Below are positions 1,246-63,488 of a stretch of 64,000 bases of DNA, piece after piece. The notes beneath the pieces are model-generated. The model had not been told where the DNA came from and ran no database searches. It saw nothing but the letters and a program-made list of their open reading frames with translations. Within the stretch, counting starts at the first letter, position 1; the number at the start of each line of letters is the position of its first letter. This stretch comes from a bacterium (GTDB lineage: Bacteria; Patescibacteriota; Minisyncoccia; Phycocordibacterales; UBA6899): positions 40,614 to 104,613 of the forward strand of contig JAYUQG010000005.1 of NCBI GenBank assembly GCA_043756865.1, read 5' to 3'. Position numbers and translations under genes: made by a program.

Positions 1246-2961
1246 ATGCATGAAAAAATTCTGCAATACATCAAAACACCAATTGGCATGAGTGTGCTCG
1301 GTTTTGCCATCCTCACCATTTCGTGGGTTGTGTATGCGAACACTAAAACTGACGCACTGCCTGAACAAACGGTCTTCACAAGCAGTGACCGTGTCGAAAT
1401 TGCCACAGTTGACACAAGCGCTACGTCAAGCGGAGCGGTGGGAGGCTCTTGGCCTGGTGAGATTCTTTCACTCGGTAGCTACCCCCTTCAACCCGAAAGA
1501 GAGGGAATAATCGCAGAGTGGCGAATACATATTGGTGAGCGTGTTCGTGCGGGACAAGTACTCGGCACACTCTCTCGCCCCCCTGCAACTCCAGAGCTCA
1601 TAAGCATGCTCGCGGGTGAAGCTGAAGGACTCGCAAAGGCGCGAAGTAATGCCGAGGCGGAAGAAACGTATGTGACGGAGCGCATTGAACAACTACTCGC
1701 ACAGCGCGTGTCAATTGAGCGCTCTTCCGCAAAAACAGGCAACTTGCTCAACTCCGCTCTGCAAACAAACTCTGGCGTCATTGCAGTAAAAAGAAAAAAT
1801 CTGCGAGTCATACTCGATAACGCTATTGCGATAACTTATCCCTACCTCTCAGGTAATGGAGTAGTGCCGACAACCTATCAGTCCATTGTGCTCCGATCTT
1901 CCATTGGGGCTCAAAATTCACGATTGCGTGAGGAATTTCCCGGGATACTCCACAATGTGCTTTCAGACCTCCGTAGCGACGAAATAATTCCTGAAAAATC
2001 GGGACTCGCATATTTTGACCACACAATAAAACTCGCCAACGCGTCACTTTCAGATGGAAGCACGCTGACGCAGGGTGACCTAAGTGCACTCAAGGATTCA
2101 CTTACGAGCGGAAGAAGTAATTTTATCGAAGCGCTCGGCGAGCTACGAGAGGCGGAGCTCGTGAGTGTGAGTACCGCTCAGGAGTATTCGACAGACTTTA
2201 AGGAAATCGACGCACAAATCACCGAGCTACGAAAAACCCTTGCAATTGCGAAAGGGGAGGTTGTGGCAAAAGAAGCGGCCTACAAGACAGTGAACAATGC
2301 AGTGAACGGTGGCAATACGATCCTCGCTCCCCGTTCTGGTATTGTTTCAACAATACTGAAAAAGCAAGGAGAGTTTGTTTCCCCCGGTACGCCCTTAGCA
2401 GTAATTACCAGTGAAACAAAAAACGAGAAAAGCATACGTTTTGCGATTCCCGTAACTGCGCAAAAACCACTTATCAATTCGTCGCTTCGTATTGTTCGTT
2501 CCGGTTTTCCTACTGATATAAAAATAGCCAGACTAATCGGAATCGGTTCGGCGGTCGATGAAATGGGGACATATATGTCTGATGCTCTCTTTACGGAGGC
2601 GAATGATTGGCCTGTTGGTGGCTCAGTGCGCGTGCTTCAGGGTGAACGCAATGGAAATGTAGCCATTCCGCTCACTTCGGTCATGTGGGACGAACGGGGC
2701 GTACCTTATGTCTGGGGAGTTTCAAGTGCCGATCGCCTGTATGCGAAAAAATTAAAGTTGGGACGCACCCTCGGAACCTCTGTCGAGGTATACGAGGGAC
2801 TTAGTGGGGGAGATCGGTATGTTGTTTCACCAACCCCACTTATGCGTGAAGACATACTCCTGAGCGAACTTGCACCGAAAAGAGATACATCAGCATTGAA
2901 TCCTGCAGTAAGTGGGGACGGAATGCACATGGAGGGAATGGATATGGATAGTCACGAATAA
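1246..2961 (+). CDS. cusB: RND efflux membrane fusion (periplasmic adaptor) protein, CusB-like; C-terminus Met/His-rich (GMHMEGMDMDSHE)
   Basis: N-terminal TM, biotin-lipoyl-like and beta-barrel MFP architecture; a 12-nt gap to the RND pump gene. Confidence 0.75.
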   Translation: MHEKILQYIKTPIGMSVLGFAILTISWVVYANTKTDALPEQTVFTSSDRVEIATVDTSATSSGAVGGSWPGEILSLGSYPLQPEREGIIAEWRIHIGERVRAGQVLGTLSRPPATPELISMLAGEAEGLAKARSNAEAEETYVTERIEQLLAQRVSIERSSAKTGNLLNSALQTNSGVIAVKRKNLRVILDNAIAITYPYLSGNGVVPTTYQSIVLRSSIGAQNSRLREEFPGILHNVLSDLRSDEIIPEKSGLAYFDHTIKLANASLSDGSTLTQGDLSALKDSLTSGRSNFIEALGELREAELVSVSTAQEYSTDFKEIDAQITELRKTLAIAKGEVVAKEAAYKTVNNAVNGGNTILAPRSGIVSTILKKQGEFVSPGTPLAVITSETKNEKSIRFAIPVTAQKPLINSSLRIVRSGFPTDIKIARLIGIGSAVDEMGTYMSDALFTEANDWPVGGSVRVLQGERNGNVAIPLTSVMWDERGVPYVWGVSSADRLYAKKLKLGRTLGTSVEVYEGLSGGDRYVVSPTPLMREDILLSELAPKRDTSALNPAVSGDGMHMEGMDMDSHE

Positions 2962-2972
2962 TATTACCAACT

Positions 2973-5900: not shown

Positions 5901-6077
5901 CCGTTGCTCTTGTCGGGTAATGATCCGGGGAAAGAACTGCTCCACCCGCTCGCCGTAGTGATATTCGGAGGACTATTTTCATCCACTGCGATCTCGCTGT
6001 TTCTCACGCCAGCGCTTTTTTATCGATTTGGAAAGAAAGCCACGCTTGTAGCTAATTCAGACACTTCTGGGTTCTAA
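2973..6077 (+). CDS. cusA: heavy-metal efflux RND permease, CusA/CzcA (HME) family
   Basis: 1034 aa with 12-TM RND topology; N-terminus LTMKVDILPDINKPTV resembles the CusA/CzcA start INTPVDALPDLSD. Confidence 0.85.
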   Translation: MFNNIISWSLRNKLVVLLTTFLIVVFGTWSLLTMKVDILPDINKPTVTIFAEGEGMASEEVERLILTPIEAAVAGAPGVERIRGSAALGRAIVNLEFAWGSDNYRNRQIVQERLTQVVLPSNVTPVLGPQSSLLGEVVWVGLTSSSAAVSAMEMRTIADFTVRPALLKIPGVSTVLVMGGDVREWQINLNAERMRQSGVMFEDVRKNIASAITNKGGGILAENGKEYPIRILVAPKDIAELREIAVGRGMSTGAVIRLADLAEVIEGPSPVRGSAAINGKPGVILRVIRQSDAETLKITKGIDETLDALRPAIPEGVLIEGDLFRQEQFIHAGLGNVTEALRDGTILVVLILLIFLMNVRTTAITLTAIPLSILVTAIIFKQFGLSVNVMTLGGIAVAVGELVDDAIVGVENVFQRLRLWKKTGAKEDREAVVLSASSEVRNSIVYATILVAVVFLPIFFVPGLEGRLIASIGAAYLVSLLASMLVSLTVTPVLSALLLHGKTLEGHEEETRLVRAIKEWMSPRIYWCIARVRFVGTLTLIALSLTAGMYLFAGKEGIPTFNEGSATVMAFTPVGTDLATTNAYVAKVAKEIEKVPGVAKVSNMTGRADADPHDGGSNASEMQILIKPEYIPHRVQVFKNIQKVLSRHDGADFGLGQPITHRMQELLSGVRAPIAIKVFGDDLEDMKNAADRVILELKKQPGVKNAQIGKDTMTPEFHIYLDRNRLAESGISSGEVALELEMGLMGDTLGQMRLGGASVDVVARFDLESKGTMASLRDIALSFENVTSLGLAGDVTVAGGRNRYTHEAGKRVLVVSANYEGKDVVGAVENVKSALDNEKLQSGVTLSYEGTYKSQKESSRRLSLVFVLGIAMIFGILYHAFKSVPIVLLIMANIPTVLIGGMIGIWLTGGVVNLAHLVGFISLAGIVSRNGIMLIGRVLTLVREGNAFTPETIVRATLDRVTPVLMTSLVTALALIPLLLSGNDPGKELLHPLAVVIFGGLFSSTAISLFLTPALFYRFGKKATLVANSDTSGF

Positions 6078-7130: not shown

Positions 7131-7850
7131 TTGGTTATGTCGGGCAATCTCTTTTTTAATGAACAGGAGTGGCGAAGGGAATTCTCCGAACACCACGACT
7201 GGTATCGAGTCATTTATCCTCAATTCGAGGCGATTTTGGCAAAATATGAAGGTGATACCCTAGAGATGAGAAAAGCCTCAAGAAACGCAATTTACGGCTT
7301 TGTAGAGGGACTACTACGTGAAGGTGCGGTCATTCTTGCCCAAAAAAGAGAGGGAAAAGACTGGGATGCCGCGCGTAAGCCAATCGACATGGCAGTTATC
7401 CATCACACAAACGTGGAAAGTGGTATTAGTTGGGAGCGTATTAGTGTTATACAGCTTATGCGATTATATGCGAAATCATATCTTTCACCGTCGACCGAAA
7501 AGGAAATAGCGGGAACGCCTGTATACTCTAATCATTTTAGAGCGAATACCCCCGTGTTCTATGGGTATCATTGGCTCGTGCGACTCGACGGTTCATGCGA
7601 GCGCCTCCTCGCAGACGACGAGATAGGCTGGCAAGCAGGGAACTGGGACATAAACTGTAGAAGTGTAGGTATTTGCCTCGATGGGGATTTCAGGACGAAT
7701 ACTCCGCCGCAGGAAATGCTCGATGGCGTACGCACACTCCTCGAGAGAGAGTATCCGGCACTACATGGCGACCAAATAATCCCACACCGCAAGTCTAATC
7801 CCACAACGACATGCCCCGGTGCGTGGTACGACGGGGTTACGTGGAATTGA
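7131..7850 (+). CDS. N-acetylmuramoyl-L-alanine amidase (Amidase_2/PGRP fold)
   Basis: HHT...GYHW...CPG motif pattern typical of zinc amidase_2 domains. Confidence 0.55.
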   Translation: MVMSGNLFFNEQEWRREFSEHHDWYRVIYPQFEAILAKYEGDTLEMRKASRNAIYGFVEGLLREGAVILAQKREGKDWDAARKPIDMAVIHHTNVESGISWERISVIQLMRLYAKSYLSPSTEKEIAGTPVYSNHFRANTPVFYGYHWLVRLDGSCERLLADDEIGWQAGNWDINCRSVGICLDGDFRTNTPPQEMLDGVRTLLEREYPALHGDQIIPHRKSNPTTTCPGAWYDGVTWN

Positions 7851-11683: not shown

Positions 11684-12044
11684 TGTGGGCGATAGAGGAA
11701 TGTCGACCCTTACAGGGTCAGTACCCCTTTCACCACGGAGAGTGCTTTATTTTTCTAAGACGGAGTACCGTTAAGAAAAATTAGTCGCCCATTTTTACAG
11801 ATTAGGAAATCCTTAAAAATATGGGAGAAGGGCTTCGACTCCTCTGGCAAAAGCCAAGCAGTTTTGGGGGAGTCGGTCACGAGTCACTAAGTTTTTTAGC
11901 GCAAAGCCTAACTAAAAAACAAAGTGCTCTCGACCCCGGCTCGCCATCTCGCCAGGCCTCGATATTGGCTTGCGCCTTTCGACTCCTCTATCGCACGCAC
12001 AATGGAAAAGCAAAAGCACTCCTACGGAGTGCTTTTAGCCATTG
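11684..12044. repeat. composite tRNA-linked repeat: degenerate copy of the tRNA-Val 3' end, a tac-loop hairpin + CAGTACCCCTTTC, spacer, ATATGGGAGAAGGGCTTCGACTCC box, gcag-loop hairpin, long inverted repeat
   Basis: Blocks shared with copies at 45440-45756, 46190-46437, 50598-50690, 51601-52281 and 63170-63404. Confidence 0.6.
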
Positions 12045-12117
12045 TGGGCGATAGAGGAGTCGAACCTCTGACATCCACTACGTCAAAGTGGCGCTCTACC
12101 AACTGAGCTAACCGCCC
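12045..12117 (-). tRNA. tRNA-Val (anticodon GAC), no encoded CCA
   Basis: Manual fold: acceptor GGGCGGT/ATCGCCC, D-arm GCTCAGTTGGTAGAGC, anticodon loop TTGACGT, T-arm AGAGG-TTCGACT-CCTCT. Confidence 0.85.
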
Positions 12118-12382: not shown

Positions 12383-14035
12383 TTGAAAAGGGGAATAGAC
12401 GTGAAGAACAATCTTCTCTGTGCCGTAAGGCTCTCCGCAGTCTTCATACTGCTTGCGGTTACCCAAGCGTGTGCGCAAACACCAGCAGAACGTGCAGGTA
12501 TTCTGTCACTCAAGGCGATTTCGCTAACCAGTGCCACGTGCAACATCTATCCGGCAATGAGCGATGTGCCGGCATGCGTGGATAAGGTTGTGCGCAAGAT
12601 TCTCATCGACCGCGATGTGAATCCTGAGCGCACTGAAGAGCTAATTCGTGAGCAAGCTGCGGCTGCTCCGACAAAGCATCCACCCAAGTTTAGAGACCTG
12701 TTGCGTAGCAAGGAGCAACTTGCGCAGCGTGTGCACGTGTACAAGCTTTTGGACATCATCGATGCTGCGTGTGCCGTCCCACCCGCCATTACAGATTTCG
12801 AGAAGTGCATGGATGCTGCGTATCACAGCATCCTCACGGCGCGCGACCCTCATTCTGCGTACTTTAATGAAGCTGAGCTGCTCGAGTTCCGAAGACAGAT
12901 GAGTGGAAACCTTCAAGGCATCGGTATTGAAATCGGACTAGCCGGCGACAAGTCCATCGGCGTCGTGCGCGTGATGGAAGGTTCGCCTGCGGAGAAGTCG
13001 GGAATACAAGACGGTGACCGCATTGTTACCATCATCAACGGCGATGTGCGTGAGCCCGTGTCTTCGTTTCCGCACATCGGTGAAGCCATTAAGAAAGTAA
13101 AGGGTGAGCCGAACACCAGCGTCACTCTGGAAATTCTTCGTGGTGAAGCAGATCAGAAGCTTACGCTTACTGTCGTACGCGCTGCTATTGCGGTTCCCCA
13201 TGTAAAGTCCGAAATTCTTTCGCTTCCAAATGACCCGAAAACGCAGTTTGCGTATATTCGACTCACTCAGTTCGGAAGCACACTTCGTCAGCAAATGGTG
13301 GATGCGGTCAAGGGAGTCCTCAAGACGAACCCAAACCTGAAGGGTTTCATATTCGACGTACGCGGTAACCCTGGGGGTGATCTCGGGCAGGCACACGAGG
13401 CCTCCGATGCCCTCGTGAACAGCCCTGAGCCACTTATCTCCATCCGAGATAATTTGGGTGTGCATGCGTATGGAACAGCATCAGACGAACGCATGCCTGA
13501 ACCGCAACCGGGTGACATCACGAACGGTCTTCCGATTGCAGTTCTGATCAATGGGCGTTCTGCTTCTGCATCAGAGATCTTTGCGGGAATCCTTCAGGAA
13601 CTTGAGCGTTCGGTGACGATGGGCGAACCCTCGTGGCAAAAAGGCTCCGTGCAACGCGTCACTCCACTAAGCGATCGGACTGCAACGAAGACGACGGAAG
13701 CTGAGTACTTGATCGGCTCACCAGCAAAGTGGGTTGCCGTGCAGTGCTTCGGGGTCACTCCCGATATCCCGTATGTGTCCGAAGGCACGATCAGTCCAGC
13801 CGTTACAAAGAATGATTGTGACTTTGATGGTTCAATCACCTCCGGCGGAGCTTCAAGCCACCCTGGTCGTGTGCGCGCACCACTTGCCGAGCGCAATCCT
13901 GCACTCTATGCAATGGGGCTGCAAATGCTCGAAGCGGTCAAAGTTCTTGACCACAAGACATTTGTTCGGTTTGAACGCATCAAAAAGATGCTAAAAATCA
14001 AAGATCCGGTAAAGTCTCAGACTCCGGAAGAATAA
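12383..14035 (+). CDS. ctpA: C-terminal processing (tail-specific) peptidase, S41 family with PDZ domain
   Basis: Signal peptide; PDZ segment GIGIEIGLAGDKSIGVVRVMEGSPAEKSGIQDGDRIV; S41 motif FDVRGNPGG; non-ATG start (TTG 12383 or GTG 12401). Confidence 0.7.
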   Translation: MKRGIDVKNNLLCAVRLSAVFILLAVTQACAQTPAERAGILSLKAISLTSATCNIYPAMSDVPACVDKVVRKILIDRDVNPERTEELIREQAAAAPTKHPPKFRDLLRSKEQLAQRVHVYKLLDIIDAACAVPPAITDFEKCMDAAYHSILTARDPHSAYFNEAELLEFRRQMSGNLQGIGIEIGLAGDKSIGVVRVMEGSPAEKSGIQDGDRIVTIINGDVREPVSSFPHIGEAIKKVKGEPNTSVTLEILRGEADQKLTLTVVRAAIAVPHVKSEILSLPNDPKTQFAYIRLTQFGSTLRQQMVDAVKGVLKTNPNLKGFIFDVRGNPGGDLGQAHEASDALVNSPEPLISIRDNLGVHAYGTASDERMPEPQPGDITNGLPIAVLINGRSASASEIFAGILQELERSVTMGEPSWQKGSVQRVTPLSDRTATKTTEAEYLIGSPAKWVAVQCFGVTPDIPYVSEGTISPAVTKNDCDFDGSITSGGASSHPGRVRAPLAERNPALYAMGLQMLEAVKVLDHKTFVRFERIKKMLKIKDPVKSQTPEE

Positions 14036-45439: not shown

Positions 45440-45756
45440 CTAATTTTTTTTCTTGTACAGACAAAAAATGTAAGTGTTCGCAACCCCACAGCGCTGTTTC
45501 GCGTGCTCGCGAAACAGCGCTGTGGTTCACAATATCGAGGGAGGACTAGGTCACAAGTCACTAAGTCTTGTGACTCACTTCGTGAGCCAAAAGCAAAGTG
45601 CTCGCGACCCTTACAGGGTTTGTACACCTTGTTGGTTTTCTCAAAATGGGAATTTCTCGAAAACATCGTCAAGGTCTTCAAGTCCTCTCGCGAAAGTGCA
45701 GCCAAGCACCTTCTCTGGGCACAATGCAAAAATCCCTTCTGGGGATTTTTGCATTG
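45440..45756. repeat. composite tRNA-linked repeat/hairpin region downstream of tRNA-Leu(TAG)
   Basis: 18-bp hairpin ccacagcgctgtttcgcg/cgcgaaacagcgctgtgg; gtcacaagtcactaag block; cccttacagggt block; degenerate GGGCTTCGACTCC box; 22-bp hairpin ctgggcacaatgcaaaaatccc/ggggatttttgcattgtgcccag that includes the tRNA 3' end. Confidence 0.55.
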
Positions 45757-45838
45757 TGCCCAGGAGAGGACTTGAACCTCCACCTCTTGCGAGACCAGTT
45801 CCTAAGACTGGCGCGGCTACCAATTACGCCACCTGGGC
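45757..45838 (-). tRNA. tRNA-Leu (anticodon TAG), long variable arm, no encoded CCA
   Basis: Manual fold: acceptor GCCCAGG/CCTGGGC, anticodon stem-loop CCAGT-CTTAGGA-ACTGG, T-arm GGAGG-TTCAAGT-CCTCT. Confidence 0.8.
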
Positions 45839-45919: not shown

Positions 45920-46090
45920 TTAATTGGGTGAGTTGTACTTCACCATTGCCTGCATGGGGAAGCCACCTTGACCTAAGGCAACTCCGCCTTGCGGGACCCA
46001 GCCATGTTTAATGCATTCGCTAACTGCCTTTGCCAGGCACCCAATGTCATGGTTTGAGACGATGCGATACTCAGCGATTTCAGTGTTCAT
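45920..46090 (-). CDS. small conserved-looking protein (56 aa, MNTEIAEYRIVSNHDIGCLAKAV...)
   Basis: Strong AGGAGG Shine-Dalgarno 7 nt upstream; below the ORF-track cut-off. Confidence 0.45.
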   Translation of the reverse strand: MNTEIAEYRIVSNHDIGCLAKAVSECIKHGWVPQGGVALGQGGFPMQAMVKYNSPN

Positions 46091-46189: not shown

Positions 46190-46437
46190 TTTTTGCAACC
46201 TTCACCCAGCTGCATCCTCGGCTCCCGCAGTGGGCATTCGGGCTTTGGTCACAAGTCACTAGATTTCGGCAGGAATTTCGGTCATTACATGACCAGTACC
46301 CGTTTCCCATTTCTTCGTGATATGAATCACTCACAAATATGGGAGAACGGCTTCGAATCCTGCCAGAAGTGCCGCAGGGCACTTCTTCGGGGGCACACAT
46401 AACAAAAAAACTGCCAAAGCAGTTTTTTTGTTATGTG
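46190..46437. repeat. composite tRNA-linked repeat downstream of tRNA-Lys
   Basis: ggtcacaagtcactag block; ggtcattacatgacc hairpin + AGTACCCGTTTCCCAT; ATATGGGAGAACGGCTTCGAATCC box; gaagtgcc-gcag-ggcacttc hairpin; 27-bp hairpin including the tRNA 3' end. Confidence 0.6.
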
Positions 46438-46510
46438 TGCCCCCGGCAGGATTCGAACCTGCGACCGTCTCGTTAAGAGCGAGCTGCTCTACCAACTGAG
46501 CTACGAAGGC
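46438..46510 (-). tRNA. tRNA-Lys (anticodon CTT), no encoded CCA
   Basis: Manual fold: acceptor GCCTTCG/CGGGGGC (two G-U pairs), anticodon loop CTCTTAA, T-arm GCAGG-TTCGAAT-CCTGC. Confidence 0.8.
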
Positions 46511-46740: not shown

Positions 46741-47331
46741 ATGTTAAGCAACGATACAAACAAAGAGCGAGACGCTGACCTTGTGGCAAGGGCACTCAAC
46801 GATAAGGATGCTTTTGCGGAAATTATTTCGTCATATGAATTGCCACTACGGCGCTATCTTGTACGACTAGGTTGTAGAGATACACACGATGTTGAGGACT
46901 TACTGCAGGACATATTTCTTAAGGTGTATGTGAATCTCAATGAGTTTGAGCATGATCTCCAGTTTTCGTCATGGATATATCGAATTGCACACAATGAAAC
47001 CATAAGTTTTTTTAGAAAAAAAAACATACGCCCTACCACAGTTACAACCGAAGAAGATTTGCAGCTTTTTACCAATGTTGCTGATGAAGAAGATTTTATA
47101 CAATTACTCAATGACCGTATGAATCTGGAAATATTTCGTACCGCATTGGCGCAGCTTGAGGGTCAGTATCGCGATGTGCTCGTGCTCCGCTTTTTAGAAA
47201 ATAAAAATTATGCTGAAATATCAGATATTCTCAAAATACCAATTGGCACAGTTGGTACGGCCATCAACCGAGGAAAAAAACTATTGCGCGACAGGGTGGT
47301 ATCAAAAATATCCAACTCACGCTTAGTTTAA
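46741..47331 (+). CDS. ECF-type sigma-70 family RNA polymerase sigma factor
   Basis: Region 2 (DIFLKVYVNLNEF...WIYRIAHNE) and region 4 HTH (NYAEISDILKIPIGTVGTAINRG). Confidence 0.75.
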   Translation: MLSNDTNKERDADLVARALNDKDAFAEIISSYELPLRRYLVRLGCRDTHDVEDLLQDIFLKVYVNLNEFEHDLQFSSWIYRIAHNETISFFRKKNIRPTTVTTEEDLQLFTNVADEEDFIQLLNDRMNLEIFRTALAQLEGQYRDVLVLRFLENKNYAEISDILKIPIGTVGTAINRGKKLLRDRVVSKISNSRLV

Positions 47332-47340
47332 TAACATACT

Positions 47341-48045
47341 ATGGAAAATAAACTACAACAGAGAATTGTAAATGAAATCAAGAAGCGTGGCATAGTGCCA
47401 CGCCCGAAATGGCAGTTTTTACTTAAGCGCAGTTTTGGCTGGACGCTTGCAGCAGTGTCACTCATGTTGGGTAGCATTGTTATCGCAACAATGATGTTCA
47501 TTTTTAGCGGTTACGATGAAAGCCTTGCAAAATACTTTAGTGAAAGTATTTATATCGATATCCTTGAGCTGCTTCCGTTCTTTTGGTTCTGCACTCTTGT
47601 TCTTCTTGTTTGGATTAGCAAGTATGCTGTTCGCCAAACAACCTATGGATACCGTTACACAACAGGGCAGATACTGACTGGTATTCTCTCTTCGAGTATT
47701 GTACTAGGAGCATTGTTGTATTCTTTTGGGCTGGGAGAGCGTGTACAGAATTTTCTCGTCCACTCTTCGCCTTATTATGATGCTCTTACATTTACCTCTA
47801 AGGATGCTTGGTCACACCCTGAAAAGGGCTTGCTTGGCGGAGTAATCATTAGCGTCGGTGATTCAGGTGAGATTGAACTACGCGACTTTAGCAATCAAAT
47901 TTGGCAGGTTGATGTGCGGGAAATTGCAGATAAAAAAATTGATTTTCAACTGCAAAAGGGTGTAATGATAAAAATTATTGGCACTCAAGATGCCCCTTTC
48001 TCATTTTACGCAGAAGAGGTATTTTCTTGGAATAACAACATTTGA
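47341..48045 (+). CDS. membrane protein co-transcribed with the ECF sigma factor (candidate anti-sigma factor)
   Basis: 10-nt gap after the sigma gene; 3-4 TM helices plus a C-terminal domain. Confidence 0.4.
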   Translation: MENKLQQRIVNEIKKRGIVPRPKWQFLLKRSFGWTLAAVSLMLGSIVIATMMFIFSGYDESLAKYFSESIYIDILELLPFFWFCTLVLLVWISKYAVRQTTYGYRYTTGQILTGILSSSIVLGALLYSFGLGERVQNFLVHSSPYYDALTFTSKDAWSHPEKGLLGGVIISVGDSGEIELRDFSNQIWQVDVREIADKKIDFQLQKGVMIKIIGTQDAPFSFYAEEVFSWNNNI

Positions 48046-48117
48046 AAGAAAGATACAGAGTGGTGCGTAATAGTAAGTAAGGGGCAAATCCTAACTATTA
48101 ATCAATTTCCCTAACTT

Positions 48118-48447
48118 ATGAAAAAACTATACATTCTCACGCTTGCTGCTCTTGTCTTTTTGGGAGTAGTCGGAGTAGCACAAGCGGTTAACCTATCAAG
48201 TATCACAGAGACACGAGAGACTGAAGATACTATTGCTGGTGACGCACATACAGCGGCATTGCATGCCGCACTCCTCTACACACAAGGTGGGCGTGTCACT
48301 GATACTGAAGTTGATGATGAAGAAAGCTATTATGAAGTCGAGGTAACACTCGACAATGGCGATGAGGTAGACGTGCAACTCAACGAGGAATTTGAAGTAG
48401 TAGGAGACAAGCGAGAAAGTCAAGCAGAGGTAGGCCGACAAAACTAA
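48118..48447 (+). CDS. secreted PepSY-domain protein
   Basis: Signal peptide; PepSY-like beta-hairpin segment YYEVEVTLDNGDEVDVQLNEEFEVV. Confidence 0.5.
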   Translation: MKKLYILTLAALVFLGVVGVAQAVNLSSITETRETEDTIAGDAHTAALHAALLYTQGGRVTDTEVDDEESYYEVEVTLDNGDEVDVQLNEEFEVVGDKRESQAEVGRQN

Positions 48448-48527
48448 CATTCCCACAGTGACTCATTTTTGTGAGTCACTTTACGCTACAAGTGAATTCT
48501 GCTTTAGCAGTTTGGTAGAATTCCCCC

Positions 48528-50597
48528 TTGGAATATAAAATAATCAATATGAAACAACAACATATCATACTCGGTGCTTGTGTGGTGCTTATGGCGATCG
48601 TCGCATTTTATGCAGTAAGCATGGATCAGAACGGTGAAAAGCAAAATATGGACACAACCAAAGGTGGATATATTCCTCAGCCCGACCTTTCACAAACTGA
48701 ACTGAAGGGGCTTCCTGTTGCATCAGTCGAAAAACGCGTTGACCTCAAAGTGCCGATATTTTCTAATCCAACAATTATCACCCATCCGCTTTTCCCAGTG
48801 AATAACCTTTCTCATGCTATCCTACTGGGAAATGACGACGGGAGACCACTGCAAGTCGTTTACACACTGCTTCCTGAAAGTATGAATAAAACCATCGATT
48901 GGAATGGTCAGAAAATTGAGACGCGTACTGTCCAGTACCTTGCTTATTTTGACCGTCGACTTATTGAGTCAGCCTATGATTGGTATGCACAAGCTGATGA
49001 TGGCTCGGTGTGGTACTTCGGCGAAGTGGTGACAAATTATGCAGACGGAAAGGTGACGGATAATCATGGAACGTGGCTGGCCGAAAAGGATGGACCCATC
49101 GCGATGATTATGCCCGCTGATCCAAAGGTGGGTGATGTGTACCGCGTGGAGAATATCCCTGGCGTAGCTTTTGAGGAAGTTGAAGTGAAGTCTATGAACA
49201 CGACAGCCGTTGGACCCCTCGGGGAAGTTCGGGGTTGTATGGTTGGATCACAACTTCATGATAACGGGAGCTATTCGGACAAGACTTTCTGTCCAGGGTA
49301 TGGTGAATTTTTTACTCAAAAAGATCTTGATCTTGAAGCTGTGGCACTAGCACTTCCGGTAGATGCCCTTGCAAAGCAAGCACCTGCTGAGCTTGCGACA
49401 ATGATGTCGAGCGCACTTCTTATTCATGATTCGGCACTCAACAATGACTGGAATGTGGTAGCAAGGGAACTTTCATCTCTCAAGGTGGCATGGAATGCTC
49501 TCCAGAAAAACCCTGATGGAGTTTCAGTGAGACTGGGGGCGCAAATGGAACGCGCCATAGAATCCCTTGAAGGCGATGCGCTAGAGCCGGGGGCCTTAGC
49601 TCGTTATACGATCGGAACACAGAACGGAGCTCTCGATGTAGCTTTTGCCGCACTCGACCTTGAAAGACGTTATCGTGCCACTGCAGAGATTGAATTGGCA
49701 AGTATTACTCTATGGGCTCGGAAAACGATAATAGATGCTAATGCACTCGAGCAAGGTTTTGTTCTTAGTGATGCACGCGCCTTCGAATTCTTAATTGAGC
49801 GTGTTAAGGAGAAATTATCAAAGGGTGATGCTGACCAACTCGAAATACTTGTGAAACAATTAGCAACTGCTGCAGACAAAGAAGACTTCAAAAAAATAAA
49901 GTCCATTGCGAGTCAACTCGCCACACATCAATATCGCGTAATTTCCCAAGGCCAATTATCTGAACAATATGATCCAAAAATAATTCCTGCAGATTTTTCG
50001 ACCCAGATCACCAACAAGTATTTTTCGTTGCCGATCGGAAAGAAGATGGTTTATGAGGCAAGGACAGAAGAAGGGAAGTTGGAAAGAGTCGAGATCAGTA
50101 TACTCAATGAAACAAAAATAATTGAAGGAGTCGCGACGATCATTTATTTAGATAGGGTATATAACGATGGTCAGCTCGTTGAAGAAACCCGAGATTACTT
50201 GGCACAGCACAAGAATGGCGATGTGTGGTACTTCGGTGAAGAAGTGGACAACTATGAGAATGGAAAACTCAAGGATCACCACGGAAGTTTTATTCATGGC
50301 AAGAATGGGGCAAAAGCAGGCATATGGATGAAGGCTAGCCAGAAGGTAGGGGATACATATCGCCAAGAATACTTTAAGGGAGAAGCAGAGGATGTCCGTG
50401 ACACAGTGGTGACCGGTTTGACCGTTGTGACAAAAAAGGCGACGTACGTTGACTGCGTTAAGGTTTATGATTGGACTCCCCTCGACCTCAAATCGCGTGA
50501 ACATAAATACTATTGTAGTGAGGTGGGTGGACTCGTCCTTAATGAGCACCTTGAGACTGGTAAGCGGTCAGAGCTTGTGAGTGTAACGATGCCATAA
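48528..50597 (+). CDS. secreted/membrane-anchored protein with two internal ~150-aa repeats (DGSVWYFGEVVTNYADGKVTDNHG... / NGDVWYFGEEVDNYENGKLKDHHG...)
   Basis: Internal duplication visible in the translation; no family recognised. Confidence 0.5.
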   Translation: MEYKIINMKQQHIILGACVVLMAIVAFYAVSMDQNGEKQNMDTTKGGYIPQPDLSQTELKGLPVASVEKRVDLKVPIFSNPTIITHPLFPVNNLSHAILLGNDDGRPLQVVYTLLPESMNKTIDWNGQKIETRTVQYLAYFDRRLIESAYDWYAQADDGSVWYFGEVVTNYADGKVTDNHGTWLAEKDGPIAMIMPADPKVGDVYRVENIPGVAFEEVEVKSMNTTAVGPLGEVRGCMVGSQLHDNGSYSDKTFCPGYGEFFTQKDLDLEAVALALPVDALAKQAPAELATMMSSALLIHDSALNNDWNVVARELSSLKVAWNALQKNPDGVSVRLGAQMERAIESLEGDALEPGALARYTIGTQNGALDVAFAALDLERRYRATAEIELASITLWARKTIIDANALEQGFVLSDARAFEFLIERVKEKLSKGDADQLEILVKQLATAADKEDFKKIKSIASQLATHQYRVISQGQLSEQYDPKIIPADFSTQITNKYFSLPIGKKMVYEARTEEGKLERVEISILNETKIIEGVATIIYLDRVYNDGQLVEETRDYLAQHKNGDVWYFGEEVDNYENGKLKDHHGSFIHGKNGAKAGIWMKASQKVGDTYRQEYFKGEAEDVRDTVVTGLTVVTKKATYVDCVKVYDWTPLDLKSREHKYYCSEVGGLVLNEHLETGKRSELVSVTMP

Positions 50598-50690
50598 GGA
50601 GCTCGACTCCCGTAAGGAAGCAAAGCAATTTGCTGTTCTCGGAAACATTACACAAAAACTCCTAATGGAGTTTTTGTGCTATCTCCGTTT
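50598..50690. repeat. short copy of the tRNA-linked repeat (GAGCTCGACTCCC box, gcaa-loop hairpin, acacaaaaactcc/ggagtttttgtg hairpin) acting as a terminator for the upstream gene
   Basis: Same blocks as the tRNA-adjacent copies but no tRNA follows. Confidence 0.5.
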
Positions 50691-50835
50691 GGCGTGTTCG
50701 TATTCAGAGAGTAAACTCATTTTTCAACCATCCTTGGTGCGTTGTCTTTTATTTTCACGCTGGCTGTGCTGAATGTCACGGACATCGTTAAGCAACCTCC
50801 TTTCAAAACGTAGTGAGCTGAAAATGGAGGTGCTC

Positions 50836-51504
50836 TTATCCGCCTTCTTTCACGGTTTGTCTGCGTGACACAAGCATAAGTACGAAAGCGAGATTTGCGA
50901 GAACTAAGGAAGCCGGATAGAGCGCGGTTGTCCATGTAAAACTTTCAAGCGCAAACATGGCAACGACGAACTTCAAGCCGGAAAGTGTGTATGTCCAGCC
51001 GTTTTCCGTTTCGGGGCTGAAATATGCTTTACGAAAAGTCGGCGCGAACGCCGCGGCGTCAACAATCGTGATAATGATGACCGACCAGAGTGGATTGCCG
51101 CTGAAGTACCAAATCGGGATAGTGAGCAGTGACGCAATGAAAAATATCCAGTCGCTTTTGGCGATGAGTATTCGAGACGACGCGCCTAATCCGACTAGCG
51201 CGAAGCCGAAACTGCAGAGCGCCGTAACACCCGTCACCCACGCACCCGCGCCTCCGCCATCGGCGATCTGCGCTACGAACGCTATCGCGGTCAAAATACC
51301 CCACACGAACCAACTGAAAGCGTGTGGTTTGACTTTGCCCTGCAAAATCCCGCGTACATAAAATACATACCCAAACAGACCGAGCGCGACAGCGATACCG
51401 CCGAGGATTTCATGCGTTGTAAATACGTCCATGTCAGTAGTATATGCTACTTTTCTTTTCCCTGCGTATGCTATCAGCAACGCCTCCGACTCCAACTTTT
51501 CCAA
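50836..51504 (-). CDS. hypothetical polytopic membrane protein (about 6 TM)
   Basis: Hydrophobicity pattern; start uncertain (51504 or 51432). Confidence 0.4.
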   Translation of the reverse strand: MEKLESEALLIAYAGKRKVAYTTDMDVFTTHEILGGIAVALGLFGYVFYVRGILQGKVKPHAFSWFVWGILTAIAFVAQIADGGGAGAWVTGVTALCSFGFALVGLGASSRILIAKSDWIFFIASLLTIPIWYFSGNPLWSVIIITIVDAAAFAPTFRKAYFSPETENGWTYTLSGLKFVVAMFALESFTWTTALYPASLVLANLAFVLMLVSRRQTVKEGG

Positions 51505-51600: not shown

Positions 51601-52281
51601 ATACATAGCACAAAAACTCCTTCGGGAGTTTTTGTGCTATGTGTTGAGGGCAGGAGGTTCGACCCTTACGGGGTCAGTACCCCTTTCCCATCTTGTCGCA
51701 CTTTCTGAAAAGTACGACAAGATACGGGAGAAGGGCTTCGACTCCCACCACGAAAGCCAATCAGTATGTCGGGGTGGAGTCTCGGCTGCCGCCGCGGGTG
51801 GATTTCGATTTCGGGGTACCACAAGGGCATTTCCATTTTTCTAGAGGAATACCTCTAAGTAAAATTGGTCACTCAATAACGAAATCCCTTTCGACTTCCG
51901 TACGCAGGCAAGCATTTGCCTGCTCCCGGGCACGTCATTCCATGGTCACGAGTTTCTAAATCTTTTGTTGCTGAGACGCACAAAAGCTTAAGAACTCTCG
52001 ACCCCACCTCGCGGTTTCTGAAAAGTCTGGAAGACAACTTTTCAAAAACATTGCTGTGGTTCACAAACGCTAAAACTCTCCCGCAGGGGAGAGTTTCTCG
52101 ACGCGTTTGTGCCCGGGGCGGGAGATTCGACCCTTACAGGGTCAGTACCCCTTTCCCATTTATTCTGGATAAGAATCCTTCATAAATATGGGAGAAGGGC
52201 TTCGACTCCCACCTCGAAAGCCAAGCAGTTGGCTTTCTCCGGCACTTAACACAAAAACTCCCAAAGGAGTTTTTGTGTTAA
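51601..52281. repeat. array of degenerate tRNA-trailer repeat units downstream of tRNA-Leu(TAA): two complete units, each with a pseudo tRNA 3' end
   Basis: Unit order on plus: 18-23-bp A-tract/T-tract hairpin, revcomp tRNA 3' end or degenerate copy (gggcaggaggttcgaccc; gcccggggcgggagattcgaccc), tac-hairpin + CAGTACCCCTTTCCCAT, spacer, ATA(T/C)GGGAGAAGGGCTTCGACTCCC, gaaagccaa-gcag-ttggctttc hairpin. Confidence 0.6.
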
Positions 52282-52362
52282 GTGCCCGGGGCGGGAGTCG
52301 AACCCGCATGCCTTTCGACGGGAGATTTTAAGTCTCCTGTGTATACCATTTCACCACCCGGG
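52282..52362 (-). tRNA. tRNA-Leu (anticodon TAA), long variable arm, no encoded CCA
   Basis: Manual fold: acceptor GCCCGGG/CCCGGGC, anticodon stem-loop AGGAG-ACTTAAA-TCTCC region, T-arm GCGGG-TTCGACT-CCCGC. Confidence 0.8.
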
Positions 52363-52474
52363 CGTGGAATTACTATAATCTTTTTTTGAACGATGAGGAA
52401 GAAGCATGCTTGCACTTCACGGCATCACGCGCTAGCGTAAAGGAAGTAAACCTTGAGTACTGAAAGGAAGTGCT

Positions 52475-52846: not shown

Positions 52847-52873
52847 ACCTCCTTTTCAGGGGGTTTTATATTG

Positions 52874-52945
52874 AGGCGTAGACCGGAATCGAACCGGTGC
52901 ATGGCAGTTTTGCAGACTGCAGTGTTACCACTTCACCACTACGCC
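52874..52945 (-). tRNA. tRNA-Cys (anticodon GCA), discriminator U, no encoded CCA
   Basis: Manual fold: acceptor GGCGTAG/CTACGCC, anticodon stem-loop GCAGT-CTGCAAA-ACTGC, T-arm ACCGG-TTCGATT-CCGGT. Confidence 0.75.
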
Positions 52946-63169: not shown

Positions 63170-63404
63170 GTGTCAATTACTCGTAAATAGGGAAGAAGGG
63201 CTTCGAATCCAGTCGGGACTAAAGCAGGGCAGGAGTTTCTTCCATTACATGGACGGTACACCCTTCGTATCTCACTTCACTTGCGGACAAGCTTGTTGCG
63301 ATATACTCAGGGTCTTCGAATCCTGCACGAAAGTGCTTCAGAGCACTTTCTCCTACGCACCGACAAAAACGGCACCCCTTGCAGGGTGCTCGTTTTTGTT
63401 TCGG
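63170..63404. repeat. composite tRNA-linked repeat downstream of tRNA-Tyr
   Basis: ATAGGGAAGAAGGGCTTCGAATCC box; second GGGTCTTCGAATCCTGC box; gcacgaaagtgc hairpin; 25-bp hairpin ctacgcaccgacaaaaacggcaccc/agggtgctcgtttttgtttcggtgcgtagg including the tRNA 3' end. Confidence 0.6.
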
Positions 63405-63488
63405 TGCGTAGGGCAGGATTCGAACCTGCGAAGCCCATAGGACGACAGATTTACAGTCTGTTGCGATTGACCACTCCGCCACCTACGC
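63405..63488 (-). tRNA. tRNA-Tyr (anticodon GTA), long variable arm, no encoded CCA
   Basis: Manual fold: acceptor GCGTAGG/CCTACGC, anticodon stem-loop ACAGA-CTGTAAA-TCTGT, T-arm GCAGG-TTCGAAT-CCTGC. Confidence 0.8.

Follow-up and report, generated by a model that had tools for sequence, protein, structure and literature searches.

The question raised by this locus is why tRNA genes should be followed directly by an inverted copy of their own 3' end. The window (the whole 64,000-nt stretch of Patescibacteriota DNA which was analysed) contains six tRNA genes, on which ARAGORN and Rfam agreed, all of them on the minus strand and none encoding CCA (0/6). Its open reading frames are housekeeping genes, such as those for FtsZ, FtsA, GyrA, HisRS, IF-2, RbfA and ClpB. 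In the first-pass annotation five of the six tRNA genes were described as having their acceptor end locked into a perfect hairpin of 18–27 bp with the downstream sequence. We found the 3' end to be paired with the trailer in five of the six genes, but the hairpins ranged from 18 to 35 bp and only three of the five were perfect (27, 22 and 21 bp, Table 1). The hairpin of tRNA-Val, which had been given as a 21-bp imperfect version, is indeed imperfect but has longer arms than this. An inverted repeat joining the 3' end of tRNA-Cys to its trailer was not found, in agreement with the first-pass annotation. With a stem of 12 bp or more and a loop of 3–8 nt required for a perfect hairpin, and one hairpin counted once per fitting loop length, there were 22 calls in the window vs a mean of 0.05 in twenty first-order shuffles, and chance is excluded as the origin of the window hairpins.

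When tRNA plus trailer was folded with RNAfold, the acceptor 3' strand was drawn into the hairpin for tRNA-Lys, tRNA-Leu(TAG), tRNA-Tyr and tRNA-Val, and for tRNA-Leu(TAA) the locked and unlocked acceptor were a near tie. The z-scores of these folds were −6.4 to −8.7 for the hairpin-bearing tRNAs vs only −1.4 for tRNA-Cys. The outer arm had been called an exact antisense of the tRNA 3' end; this is correct, but the complementarity continues past the acceptor, where a hairpin of 22–25 nt is followed by 12–19 nt complementary to the T-stem 3' strand and T-loop.

The inner part of the hairpins consists of an A-tract, a G+C stem and a T-tract (for example CTGC-TTTG-GCAG-TTTTTTT, with the G+C stem-loop directly before the T-tract), as in tRNA-Lys, where it is terminator-like. 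From these features it looks like a bidirectional intrinsic terminator, as had been proposed. A consensus terminator scan did not call the Lys and Leu(TAG) hairpins, because their stems continue through the T-tract into the arms. The conserved ACAAAAA/GTTTTTGT core which had been reported amounts merely to the A-tract and the T-tract: the stems vary, and one hairpin sequence occurs three times. The hairpins share with bidirectional intrinsic terminators the A-tract, the G+C stem, a loop of 3–5 nt and a T-tract right after a stable-RNA gene, but unlike terminators their stem adds 10–15 perfect pairs into the mature tRNA, which are needless for termination.

We found that the acceptor-locking hairpin is the tRNA-proximal end of a non-coding element of 130–300 nt at the 3' ends of tRNA and tmRNA genes, whose layout was read directly in five window loci and in about 70 loci from other genomes. 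In tRNA-sense order, this element comprises the intact tRNA 3' end, which is the left direct repeat; a short terminator-like G+C hairpin with an A-tract on one side and a T-tract on the other; the trailer, discriminator and acceptor 3' strand of the same tRNA, inverted; usually, at the precise boundary between acceptor and T-stem, the 9-bp conserved hairpin H1; the T-stem 3' strand and T-loop, inverted, with TCGAA at the end; a conserved core, made up in type 1 of hairpin H2, which contains a tandem G.A, the junction GGGUACUG and hairpin H3, whose loop is GUA; and the T-stem 3' strand and acceptor 3' strand again, in direct orientation. Several core types occur within this one common frame. 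H1 lies at the acceptor/T-stem junction in every copy which bears it, and in some families it is absent and the antisense copy is contiguous (L099, L103, L145 and window Val, where the first element has an antisense copy unbroken through acceptor, T-stem and T-loop). One H1 variant (GTGCCCTGCGGCAC) recurs across genomes beside arms which fit Lys, Trp, Glu, Arg and other tRNAs, and both H1 and the cores are homologous across Patescibacteria classes. The direct repeats vary in length from 7 to 24 nt, the acceptor half of the distal repeat is missing in many copies (window Lys, L004, L029 and L065), and the hairpin adjoining the tRNA differs from the hairpin after the direct repeat.

Table 1 tRNA genes, acceptor-locking hairpins and element copies in the window (CM, covariance model).
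Feature	Position	Strand	Remarks
tRNA-Val(GAC)	12044..12117	-	ARAGORN and Rfam
tRNA-Leu(TAG)	45756..45838	-	ARAGORN and Rfam
tRNA-Lys(CTT)	46437..46510	-	ARAGORN and Rfam; last ~24 nt are the left direct repeat and arm target
tRNA-Leu(TAA)	52282..52363	-	ARAGORN and Rfam
tRNA-Cys(GCA)	52873..52945	-	Internal negative control: no hairpin, no element
tRNA-Tyr(GTA)	63403..63488	-	ARAGORN and Rfam
Lys hairpin	46388..46445	-	27/27 bp, 4-nt loop; order: acceptor 3' strand, trailer, A-tract, CTGC / GCAG, T-tract, antisense trailer, antisense acceptor
Leu(TAG) hairpin	45715..45763	-	22/22 bp, perfect
Leu(TAA) hairpin	52241..52286	-	21/21 bp, perfect
Tyr hairpin	63352..63412	-	18-nt outer arms, 89% complementary, enclosing an inner hairpin
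Val palindrome	11978..12064	-	35-nt arms, 77% complementary
Lys element body	46266..46393	-	Type 1; CM 120 bits; antisense acceptor, H1 (about 46364-46387), antisense T-stem/T-loop (46352-46364), H2, H3
Lys element, short direct repeat	about 46266-46274	-	TTCCTGCCG
Leu(TAG) element	45536..45720	-	CM match 45592-45720, 62 bits; 3' boundary approximate; antisense acceptor, H1, antisense T-arm (45677-45689), type-2 core fused to type-4 tail (GGGTCGCGAGCACTT...CTTAGTGACTTGTGACC), then degenerate direct repeat AGTCCTCCCT
Leu(TAA) element	52109..52244	-	Type 1; CM 125 bits; antisense acceptor, H1, antisense T-arm (52198-52216), H2, GGGGTACTG, H3
Leu(TAA) direct repeat	52109-52124	-	CTCCCGCCCCGGGCAC; full 16 nt
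Second terminator-like hairpin	52064..52108	-	Directly after Leu(TAA) direct repeat; read from sequence
Second docking module downstream of tRNA-Leu(TAA)	51888..51933	-	Read from sequence
tRNA-less type-1 copy	51647..51780	-	CM 99 bits
18-bp perfect terminator-like hairpin	51603..51642	-	Closes copy 51647..51780
Decayed copy	50600..50680	-	Terminator hairpin (50652-50677), H1-like hairpin, GGGAGTCGA
Tyr element	63225..63412	-	Type 2; CM 59 bits; includes imperfect hairpin 63352-63412; H1, antisense T-arm (63315-63326), core, direct repeat TCCTGCCCT (about 63225-63233)
Truncated second core	63185..63211	-	GGATTCGAAGCCCTTCTTCCCTATTT; directly after Tyr direct repeat
Val element 1	11872..12064	-	Palindrome 11978-12064, then type-4 core ending CTTAGTGACTCGTGACC
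Val element 2, tandem	11685..11877	-	CM 59 bits; type-1 core with extra internal domain; direct repeat CCTCTATCGCCCAC (about 11685-11698)

A covariance model of the element gave six matches in the window, all six on the minus strand. Two hairpins in the window had been listed as orphan copies without a tRNA; they are not free-standing, as the one at 51603–51642 follows a complete copy, itself not preceded by a tRNA, and the one at 50652–50677 precedes a decayed H1 and antisense T-arm. The arms and direct repeat (CCTCCTGCCCTCAACAC) of that complete copy match none of the window tRNAs, and the arms of its closing hairpin recur at 50652–50677 and 52251–52276. The docking module downstream of tRNA-Leu(TAA) consists of an antisense Leu(TAA) acceptor (GTGCCCGGG), an H1-like hairpin and an antisense T-arm. 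The hairpin directly after the Leu(TAA) direct repeat was, judging from its sequence, probably the terminator of tRNA-Leu(TAA) before insertion.

The arms follow the sequence of the neighbouring tRNA. The antisense T-arm matched the cognate tRNA completely (7/7) in 28 of 36 cases, vs 1% of non-cognate pairs, and the antisense acceptor (8/8) in 16 of 36, vs 0.5%. The direct repeat matched (12/12) in 15 of 36, vs 0% of non-cognate pairs, so that the tRNA 3' end is directly repeated at either junction, as is expected of integrative elements which target tRNA genes. As the arms track the tRNA, their complementarity is not incidental to a generic palindromic repeat. The order of parts was also constant: the antisense T-arm preceded the direct repeat in 40/42 cases and the antisense acceptor preceded the antisense T-arm in 30/30. 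Each of the arms is a reverse complement of tRNA-sense sequence, with T-loop positions 59–60 tracked, and the antisense acceptor is the complement of the 3' strand (GCCCCCG), not a copy of the wobble-containing 5' strand (GCCTTCG). The arm complements the genomic trailer and not CCA (window Lys, TGTGTGCCCCCG), with TGG present only where the gene encodes CCA (L004); a retroviral-type primer-binding site for a reverse transcriptase was rejected on this ground. Among 447 pairs in 19 acceptor-locking palindromes, the non-Watson–Crick pairs were 4 G.T, 4 A.C and 17 others, and the palindromes are perfect in different genomes although their sequences differ. The outer arm thus shows none of the G.U excess expected of an RNA-selected stem (G.T equals A.C), and its origin probably lies at the DNA level.

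Perfect arms with Watson–Crick pairs only could also come from local inverted duplication or replication slippage of ordinary terminators, with no element involved. Tandem inversion duplications are inverted triplications formed by template switching at short inverted repeats. The direct-inverted-direct order found here is the product of such template switching, as in tandem inversion duplications and in ODIRA, where an inverted triplication arises at short inverted repeats (PMC4689423, PMC10766183). The likeness extends to the junctions, which lie at a hairpin and at the palindrome TTCGAA. However, those events span kilobases or more and bring no foreign sequence, whereas here the core, and often H1, occupies fixed places, and the hairpin next to the tRNA is probably not the terminator which the gene had originally. 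This hairpin also differs from the one after the direct repeat. In every window case and inspected locus the hairpin is followed by the antisense T-arm and a conserved core, and the homology of H1 and cores across classes is likewise not expected of local events. An antisense T-arm abutting a direct repeat without a core was never found, 60–140 nt of core always lying between them, and in the absence of such a core-less docking site a two-step model of palindrome first and core later is unsupported. Local duplication is already contradicted as a complete explanation, and we regard it as very improbable. The earlier suggestions that the hairpins are inverted duplications of the tRNA 3' end, or scars of slippage or template switching, therefore fit the DNA-level arm, but local terminators are inadequate as a description, as a conserved element is present.

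The covariance model found 100 copies in Patescibacteria loci. At the element loci, 63 of 82 tRNA and tmRNA genes were followed within less than 400 nt by a match on their own strand, and 4 had one on the opposite strand. The family is common but patchy in Patescibacteria: in loci picked regardless of the element, the antisense T-arm was found at 31 of 162 tRNAs and the direct repeat at 19 of 162, and upstream of the same 162 tRNAs these figures were 0.8% and 0%. The cluster of IF-2, tRNA-Cys, tRNA-Leu(TAA), tRNA-Lys and tRNA-Leu(TAG) is compact and element-free in many relatives, where the orthologous tRNAs, also without CCA, are 19–100 nt apart and lack the antisense extension. Of the two outcomes which the first-pass annotation had named as refuting, its absence from relatives is observed, and a failure of the arms to track the tRNA is not. 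tRNA-Tyr is followed by a type-3 element in L099, by none in L100 and by a type-4 element in L103, and tRNA-Lys is filled in the window and L004 but not in L079, with the opposite pattern for tRNA-Cys. Tandem, nested and truncated copies occur in L034, L007, L086 and the window arrays of Val, Tyr and Leu(TAA). The element is, like MITEs, short, non-coding, multi-copy and variably present between genomes. When an exact pair of filled and empty alleles was sought, the only clean indel after a tRNA (L133 vs L135) was an unrelated GIY-YIG-like ORF.

This distribution bears on the proposal that the hairpin serves 3' processing or quality control of CCA-less tRNAs, either by sequestering the acceptor or by offering a duplex to a double-strand-specific RNase, up to the removal of the trailer. 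Locking of the acceptor in four of the five minimum free energy folds and the long perfect duplex stems of 21–27 bp are what such a device would show. However, the same CCA-less tRNAs of relatives, and tRNA-Cys in the window, do without a hairpin, and the tRNA-Lys of L004 encodes CCA, yet has a hairpin, within which the CCA lies; the tie to the missing CCA is weakened accordingly. With termination at the T-tract the antisense acceptor would never be transcribed, the stem is without G.U excess, and H1, the core and the direct repeat would be left unexplained, so that we consider a processing role improbable.

The core behaves differently from the outer arm. In the core 97.6% of cells pair, vs 79.6% in shuffles and 38–54% with the partners slid, and cells with a double change number 270 vs 80; it should be noted that the loci retrieved by an exact 18-base pattern overstate sequence conservation. 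One core pair is split between GC (33) and CG (28), and in H1, H2 and H3 G.U exceeds A.C on the tRNA-sense strand. We infer that the core is kept by selection as a folded single strand, which is most likely an RNA of tRNA sense. One genome has four copies, and H3 does not vary among them. Between two genomes with only 69% identity in IF-2, the copies at the orthologous tRNA-Lys genes agree in every position of a 62-nt block and have the same repeat end. A candidate 3-bp pseudoknot between a UAC and the GUA loop of H3 involves nearly invariant triplets, with one compensatory case and eight inconsistent ones. The element alone folds as an acceptor/T-stem minihelix (−66.5 kcal/mol, z = −5.8), a pairing which follows by construction from the repeats and shows no independent covariation.

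These features could suggest a tRNA-linked non-coding RNA which benefits the host and is transcribed by read-through of the inner hairpin, which is the main alternative but one which we hold to be doubtful. The antisense arms and the distal direct repeat would form a tRNA-like acceptor/T-stem minihelix, with H1 in place of the D and anticodon arms and the core in place of the T-loop; tRNA-processing enzymes would free and stabilise this RNA, and the core would act, for example by binding a protein or another RNA. In addition to the minihelix fold, which is exactly as this account has it, it would be favoured by the position of H1, by the strong covariation of the core with its conserved junctions, loop and tandem G.A, by the excess of G.U on the tRNA-sense strand, by the identical 62-nt block and by the uniform H3, as if fitted to a trans-acting partner. 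Since its pairing runs beyond the discriminator and CCA is lacking, the minihelix would make a poor RNase P substrate, and it is separated from the promoter by a terminator-like hairpin. The loss of the acceptor half of the distal repeat in many copies also speaks against a host RNA; patchy occupancy, differing core types per tRNA and tandem or truncated copies are unexpected for a housekeeping RNA, and with some twenty different tRNAs concerned there is no reason for it to mimic its own neighbour. In tmRNA and in viral tRNA-like structures, the two ends of a larger RNA come together as a tRNA-like domain (PMC8127992). The predicted acceptor/T-stem stack likewise closes a larger structured RNA, but unlike in those domains its stem sequences are those of the adjacent tRNA and perfect complements, the core replaces the T-loop and there is no CCA.

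Group II introns carry guides to their own target in the form of exon-binding sites, type V-K CRISPR transposons have homing spacers against tRNA genes, and the guides of IS110 bridge RNAs pair with opposite strands. Like these guide-carrying mobile elements, the present element contains internal sequence complementary to its insertion target, split in two by a structured part. The two antisense segments beside H1 might serve as guides which bring the product of a gene at another locus to the tRNA gene or the pre-tRNA, where this protein would act in homing, cleavage or modification. Target-specific segments of 8–10 and 12–13 nt do flank the conserved hairpin, and one H1 variant occurs with arms for different tRNAs in different genomes. 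Candidate-phyla-radiation bacteria are also known to encode unusual RNA-guided proteins, including TIGR-Tas, in which dual spacers pair with opposite target strands and an effector gene is adjacent (PMC12045711). However, the two segments here read one and the same strand and abut on the target, leaving none of its nucleotides unpaired between them, unlike in TIGR, IS110 and H/ACA pockets. The complementarity extends into the gene-specific trailer and hairpin, as in a copied palindrome, the antisense copy is unbroken and H1 absent in some families, and no candidate effector gene was found near the elements in about 70 loci. A programmable RNA-guided system is thus unlikely.

The explanation which we favour, with moderate confidence, is that the 3' ends of tRNA and tmRNA genes are the targets of small, non-autonomous insertion elements which encode no protein and take the sequence of their arms from the gene at which they insert. 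The target would be the segment from T-loop to 3' end which is common to all tRNA and tmRNA genes, and on arrival the target-matching parts would be copied from it, once directly and once inverted; this might happen by snap-back or template-switch synthesis, with the hairpin and the palindromic T-loop TTCGAA as its sites. With its arms copied from the target, the element would therefore leave the essential tRNA gene intact and supply it with a new terminator. The long perfect hairpin would be a palindrome at the DNA level, its inner part probably stopping transcription in both directions, and transcription would reach the outer part, which locks the acceptor, only on read-through. In such a read-through RNA the outer arm would pair with the proximal tRNA 3' end; as this end would be occupied, the tRNA body would pair with the distal repeat and the element would be inserted compactly in the T-loop, as in the predicted read-through folds (z = −11.6 and −12.2). 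We infer the insertion junctions from a comparison of loci and not of close-strain allele pairs. Rewriting of both H1 flanks for each tRNA is not easily explained by this copying mechanism, and the identical 62-nt block looks like purifying selection in place, which favours host function or domestication. More tentatively, the elements might represent an undescribed class of protein-less, tRNA-mimicking mobile elements whose conserved core, a structured RNA or single strand, moves between tRNA and tmRNA genes, the arms on either side of the conserved hairpin being rewritten per target or acting as guides. Insertion in this class would be self-templating or programmable, would use host tRNA-handling or replication enzymes and would be specific to the streamlined genomes of the candidate phyla radiation.

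Insertion into tRNA and tmRNA genes has precedents, as mycobacteriophage Ms6 integrates in the T-loop of tRNA-Ala (PMC1762012) and genomic islands sit in tmRNA genes (PMC11915505). The present elements resemble tRNA-targeting integrative elements in the target from T-loop to 3' end, the restoration of the gene by a copy of its 3' end, the flanking direct repeats and the tandem arrays, but differ from them in measuring 130–300 nt and not kilobases, in having no integrase, in using about twenty tRNAs for one related family, and in containing an inverted target copy and a conserved structured core. MITEs, REP/BIME and REPIN are miniature non-autonomous repeats (reviewed in PMC3184786) which, like the present elements, are short, non-coding, multi-copy, hairpin-forming, intergenic, often terminators and variable between genomes. 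MITEs have element-specific terminal inverted repeats in common with an autonomous transposon, and a short target-site duplication of fixed length. Here the inverted repeats are target sequence and differ per locus, the direct repeats vary in length, all copies are confined to one orientation downstream of tRNA and tmRNA genes, and no autonomous partner was found. Group I introns occur in the T-loop of tmRNA (PMC11915505) and in tRNA genes of Patescibacteria (PMC13011429), and share with our elements the T-loop site, the read-through fold as a T-loop insertion and the antisense to a flanking 'exon'. Unlike group I introns, the elements have no model match (RF00028) and a core of only about 90 nt, for which reasons a group I intron was rejected, and they have no need of splicing since a complete 3' end precedes them. 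The rtT repeats linked to tyrT in E. coli (RF00391) each contain the last nucleotides of their tRNA and are direct repeats at a single locus. Our elements are similar in lying downstream of a tRNA gene with tRNA 3' nucleotides, but have an antisense copy and a shared core, are found at many loci and gave no Rfam match.

At the gathering score, only the six tRNAs of the window matched Rfam 15, and with E up to 10 the Leu(TAA) element gave only chance microRNA-hairpin matches. A description of the element was not found in the literature, where most subscription journals lay outside the search and absence is not proof. No transposase, integrase, reverse transcriptase or recombinase was found among the 40 window ORFs scanned. 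There was no recurring neighbour protein in about 70 loci; the commonest family, which is pilus- or chemotaxis-related, occurred in 7 loci. A scan of viral contigs with two patterns gave only chance matches in coding DNA, and a phage or plasmid origin was rejected. Autonomous, split or cargo-bearing copies were not found, and left halves without right halves were chance matches or truncations. Known small ribozymes were also rejected, as inspection by eye for a hammerhead showed CUGA in the element but no CUGANGA...GAAA core, and twister, pistol, hatchet and HDV had no Rfam match. An H/ACA-like guide has a similar topology, but the element is without unpaired target nucleotides, a lower stem and an ACA box; box C/D or TIGR-like guides were rejected because box motifs are absent and both arms read the same strand. 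Miniature IS200/IS605 elements have subterminal hairpins and insert 3' of a fixed 4–5-nt motif without target duplication. The TCGAA flank and the hairpins would fit such an origin, but the present elements do have direct repeats and lack a guide-tetranucleotide spacer before H2.

If our interpretation is true, a structured element which has escaped annotation accompanies a sizeable share of tRNA and tmRNA genes in some parts of the Patescibacteria, this share being 5/6 in the window and about one in five in loci picked regardless of the element. For annotation this matters in that element copies yield spurious ORFs and partial 'tRNA' signals, and the elements would explain the long tRNA spacers of otherwise compact genomes. 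Insertion at the most conserved motif of tRNA genes with the gene left intact, arms which differ per target and a structurally selected core are three features not known together. If the arms are copied from the target, this would be a natural small-scale inverted triplication used by a mobile element; if the arms are guides, or the RNA is a processed tRNA mimic, it would be a new RNA-based system in organisms which are poor in protein-based ones.

In five of the six tRNA genes of the window (Table) a hairpin pairs the 3′ end of the tRNA with the trailer, as the first-pass annotation had claimed from the sequence. All six genes lie on the minus strand (ARAGORN and Rfam were concordant) and none encodes CCA. 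Perfect hairpins with stems of ≥ 12 bp gave 22 calls in the window, each hairpin being counted once for every loop length fitted, vs 0.05 per shuffled sequence. When tRNA and trailer were folded together with RNAfold the acceptor 3′ strand was locked in 4/5 cases, Leu-TAA being a near tie, with z-scores of − 6.4 to − 8.7 for the hairpin-bearing tRNAs vs − 1.4 for tRNA-Cys.

The trailer is antisense to the acceptor end as described, but the complementarity is not confined to it. On the tRNA-sense strand a 22–25-nt hairpin (H1; consensus GAGAAAG-stem-loop-stem-CTTTCG) interrupts the antisense copy after the acceptor, and complementarity then resumes, spanning the T-stem 3′ strand and all of the T-loop and ending in TCGAA. 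There follows a conserved core. The type-1 core opens with GCC and the long hairpin H2 (NTTCTCCCATATTT...AAATGGGAAAN'), continues with GGGTACTG and the short hairpin H3, whose loop is GTA, and closes with CGAAAT. The last part of the element is a direct repeat of two tRNA segments, the 3′ strands of the T-stem and of the acceptor; at tRNA-Leu-TAA this repeat is followed by a second terminator-like hairpin. Six copies in the window were detectable by covariance model, and extra variant or truncated modules were found after tRNA-Val, tRNA-Tyr and tRNA-Leu-TAA. Two hairpins previously listed as orphans without a tRNA both proved to be part of element copies or of such modules. One terminator hairpin occurs three times in the window, and this module may itself have been copied between loci.

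Table. Positions of hairpins (inverted-repeat search), element copies (covariance model) and other features, in the window unless another locus is named
Feature	Position	Strand	Details
tRNA-Lys hairpin	46388–46445		arms 27/27 bp, 4-nt loop
tRNA-Leu-TAG hairpin	45715–45763		arms 22/22 bp
tRNA-Leu-TAA hairpin	52241–52286		arms 21/21 bp
tRNA-Tyr hairpin	63352–63412		arms imperfect
tRNA-Val hairpin	11978–12064		35-nt arms, 77%
tRNA-Cys hairpin			none
Element copy	52115–52244	minus	
Element copy	46266–46393	minus	
Element copy	51647–51780	minus	
Element copy	45592–45720	minus	
Element copy	11691–11877	minus	
Element copy	63226–63357	minus	
Direct repeat after tRNA-Leu-TAA	52109–52124		CTCCCGCCCCGGGCAC
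Terminator hairpin	50652–50677, 51610–51635, 52251–52276		ACAAAAACTCC-N4-GGAGTTTTTGT, loops differing
Module 3′ of both Leu tRNA elements	45486–45525, 51985–52065		GTGAACCACAGC ... GTGGGGTYGMGA, with 18-bp perfect hairpin
Module ahead of type-1 copy	51790–51935; L058 (distant genome) ~7330–7420		TCGAAAGGGATTTCGTTATTGAGT ... CGAAATCGAAATCCACCCGCGGCGGYAGCCGAGA
Tandem repeat in H1 loop, tRNA-Leu-TAG element	L097 (Lloydbacteria genome) 13340–13560		2 × 57 nt; same sequence as L004 1180–1400
Gene block between tRNA-Leu-TAA and tRNA-Lys	46741–51504		
Element copies/remnants flanking the block	51603–51780, 50600–50680		
ORF between Lys element and tRNA-Leu-TAG	45920–46090	minus	~56 aa; AGGAGG ribosome-binding site, promoter-like TTGACT-17-TAACAT and own terminator (putative)
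HlyD-like and AcrB-family RND transporter genes	1246–6077		AcrB-family match 718 bits
Insertion 3′ of tRNA-Ser(gct)	L133 ~2130–2345		212 nt

The inverted and direct repeats are target-specific. In 36 cases the arms were compared with cognate and non-cognate tRNAs and were found to track the cognate sequence: the antisense T-arm (7 nt before TCGAA) matched its own tRNA at 7/7 positions in 28/36 (1% of non-cognate pairs), the antisense acceptor and discriminator at 8/8 in 16/36 (0.5%) and the direct repeat at 12/12 in 15/36 (0%). At T-loop positions 59–60 the arm follows the tRNA in reverse-complement form, which makes it antisense rather than a duplicate of the tRNA 5′ half; for tRNA-Lys the arm reads GCCCCCG vs GCCTTCG in the tRNA's own 5′ strand. 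The order of antisense acceptor, antisense T-arm and direct repeat was essentially invariant.

These units belong to a conserved, covarying and strand-specific element family at the 3′ ends of Patescibacteria tRNA and tmRNA genes. Scanning an 18-base core pattern against one genome per species gave 91 loci, with apparent conservation inflated by retrieval through the pattern itself; about 70 hold this element and come from Patescibacteria (Lloydbacteria, Taylorbacteria, Paceibacterota and Saccharibacteria), the others being chance matches to coding sequence in other phyla. A covariance model from 61 copies gave 97 matches in 72 loci, where 63 of the 82 tRNA/tmRNA genes were followed by a same-strand match within 400 nt; only four matches were on the opposite strand. 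Host genes included tmRNA and tRNAs for at least 15 amino acids. No Rfam 15 family or viral contig matched the element, and no description was found in the full-text literature, coverage of which was incomplete. The window itself is chromosomal DNA of an organism of this kind, with housekeeping genes throughout; its IF-2 shares at most 70% identity with metagenome relatives, and the sequence of a relative at 69% was identical to a Lloydbacteria genome. The tmRNA genes with the element (L053, L068; L016, L032, L034, L047 and L056) have copies without the antisense acceptor, ARAGORN called the tmRNA 3′ domain “tRNA-Pro(ggg)” at several of them, and in L034 the whole unit is duplicated in tandem (137 nt).

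In the 61-sequence core alignment 97.6% of cells pair, vs 79.6% with partners shuffled and 38–54% with partners slid, and double-change cells numbered 270 vs 80. One H2 pair was GC in 33 and CG in 28 sequences, and covariation was seen at every H3 pair. G.U pairs exceeded A.C mismatches (about 34 to 16 in H2 and H3, 7 to 0 in H1) and the unpaired conserved residues are purine-rich on the tRNA-sense strand, indicating that this is the functional strand, as RNA or single-stranded DNA. A symmetric tandem G.A is conserved within H2, and a UAC junction triplet could pair with the H3 loop GUA. The main rival to an insertion element, a host-beneficial tRNA-linked RNA, is in our judgement possible but doubtful. 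It is favoured by a 62-nt block (antisense acceptor, H1, antisense T-arm and H2 base) free of differences between orthologous copies in genomes whose IF-2 proteins are 69% identical, with the same repeat end, and by a uniform H3 stem-loop (ACGCAGTAGGCGT) in all four type-1 copies of the genome MHLM01 (L004, L011, L019 and L050), among which the H1 and H2 tips differ. This homogeneity was found in MHLM01 only, other genomes showing none, and points to gene conversion or a genome-specific partner.

Thermodynamic prediction for the element alone (z = − 5.8) paired the antisense arms with the distal repeat as an acceptor/T-stem stack, H1 being placed at the junction and the T-loop replaced by H2 and H3. 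With the tRNA included (z about − 12), the proximal 3′ end is predicted to pair with the antisense arms and the 5′ half with the distal repeat, giving a tRNA with a large structured T-loop insertion. If transcription stopped at the T-tract, neither fold would arise. An RNA-guided element seems improbable; the defining features of known dual-guide systems are lacking.

The tRNA-end palindrome is Watson–Crick-only. An ungapped hairpin from the acceptor 3′ strand was found in 19/250 non-redundant tRNAs, 8 being perfect over 24–27 bp. The 25 non-Watson–Crick pairs among 447 in these 19 hairpins comprised 4 G.T, 4 A.C and 17 others, and the acceptor-locking stem therefore shows none of the G.U tolerance of H1–H3. 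The orthologous tRNA-Lys loci of L004 and of the window have wholly different inner stems and trailers, yet each palindrome is perfect; the L004 gene encodes CCA, which its palindrome takes in. This signature points to an arm copied from a template or homogenised at the DNA level, rather than to selection on an RNA stem.

We also examined IF-2-anchored loci, which were chosen without regard to the element and keep the gene order IF-2, tRNA-Cys, Leu-TAA, Lys-CTT and Leu-TAG. Type-1 matches were rare (10 in 1.07 Mb). An antisense T-arm lay 3′ of 31/162 tRNAs (4.7% for non-cognate pairs, 0.8% upstream) and a direct repeat 3′ of 19/162 (1% and 0%); the two were 60–140 nt apart in all cases and were never found abutting in the loci examined. 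At least five core types occur within one frame, with H1 presence independent of core type. Many relatives have the four tRNAs 19–100 nt apart without hairpin, element or CCA, and these empty orthologous sites weaken the earlier proposal of a processing device for CCA-less tRNAs, which we think unlikely.

Occupancy is patchy, with several core types. For tRNA-Tyr with a near-identical 3′ end, L099 has a type-3 element, L100 none and L103 a type-4 element; tRNA-Leu-TAG has a type-1-like copy in L097 vs a type-2/4 hybrid in the window; and tRNA-Lys bears an element in the window and L004 and none in L079, with tRNA-Cys occupancy reversed. Copies are commonly in tandem (L034, window Val), nested (L007 and L086, where a new core begins at the TCGA that follows H3) or truncated. 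Such patchy, varied occupancy is the behaviour of inserted, turning-over DNA. The search for filled and empty alleles turned up no exact pair from close strains; the only clean indel, between the related contigs L133 and L135, was an unrelated short GIY-YIG-like ORF (MYIVYILKCIDEKSYTGCTENLEERLKRHNNGYVPATKNHF) inserted directly 3′ of tRNA-Ser.

The gene block between tRNA-Leu-TAA and tRNA-Lys encodes an ECF-type sigma factor, a membrane protein and 109-, 689- and 222-aa proteins with no Pfam matches, where relatives have a spacing of only 19–230 nt. Element copies and remnants flank the block, which may therefore represent a larger insertion at the tRNA cluster. Elsewhere in the window, the HlyD-like/AcrB-family efflux pair is of a kind typical of double-membrane bacteria and was unexpected for a Patescibacteria-like genome.

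We give about even chances to these being protein-less insertion elements. Insertion would be aimed at the T-loop-to-3′-end segment of tRNA genes, the arms would be generated from the target by copying so that a single-copy essential tRNA gene stays intact, and the inner hairpin would act as a putative terminator. That the hairpins are just terminators is contradicted as a complete account and is very improbable. In its direct-inverted-direct layout, joined at a hairpin and at the palindrome TTCGAA, the element is similar to the inverted triplications that template switching makes (PMC4689423, PMC10766183), which, however, carry no foreign core. A domesticated mobile element would reconcile the insertion-element and host-RNA views. 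None of the defining tests assigns the element to an existing family, and it is best filed with its nearest known kinds, tRNA-targeted insertions and miniature structured repeats; that it represents a mobile RNA/DNA element of a new, self-templating or guided kind is a speculative but serious prospect. The hairpin observation is real, and richer than first described.
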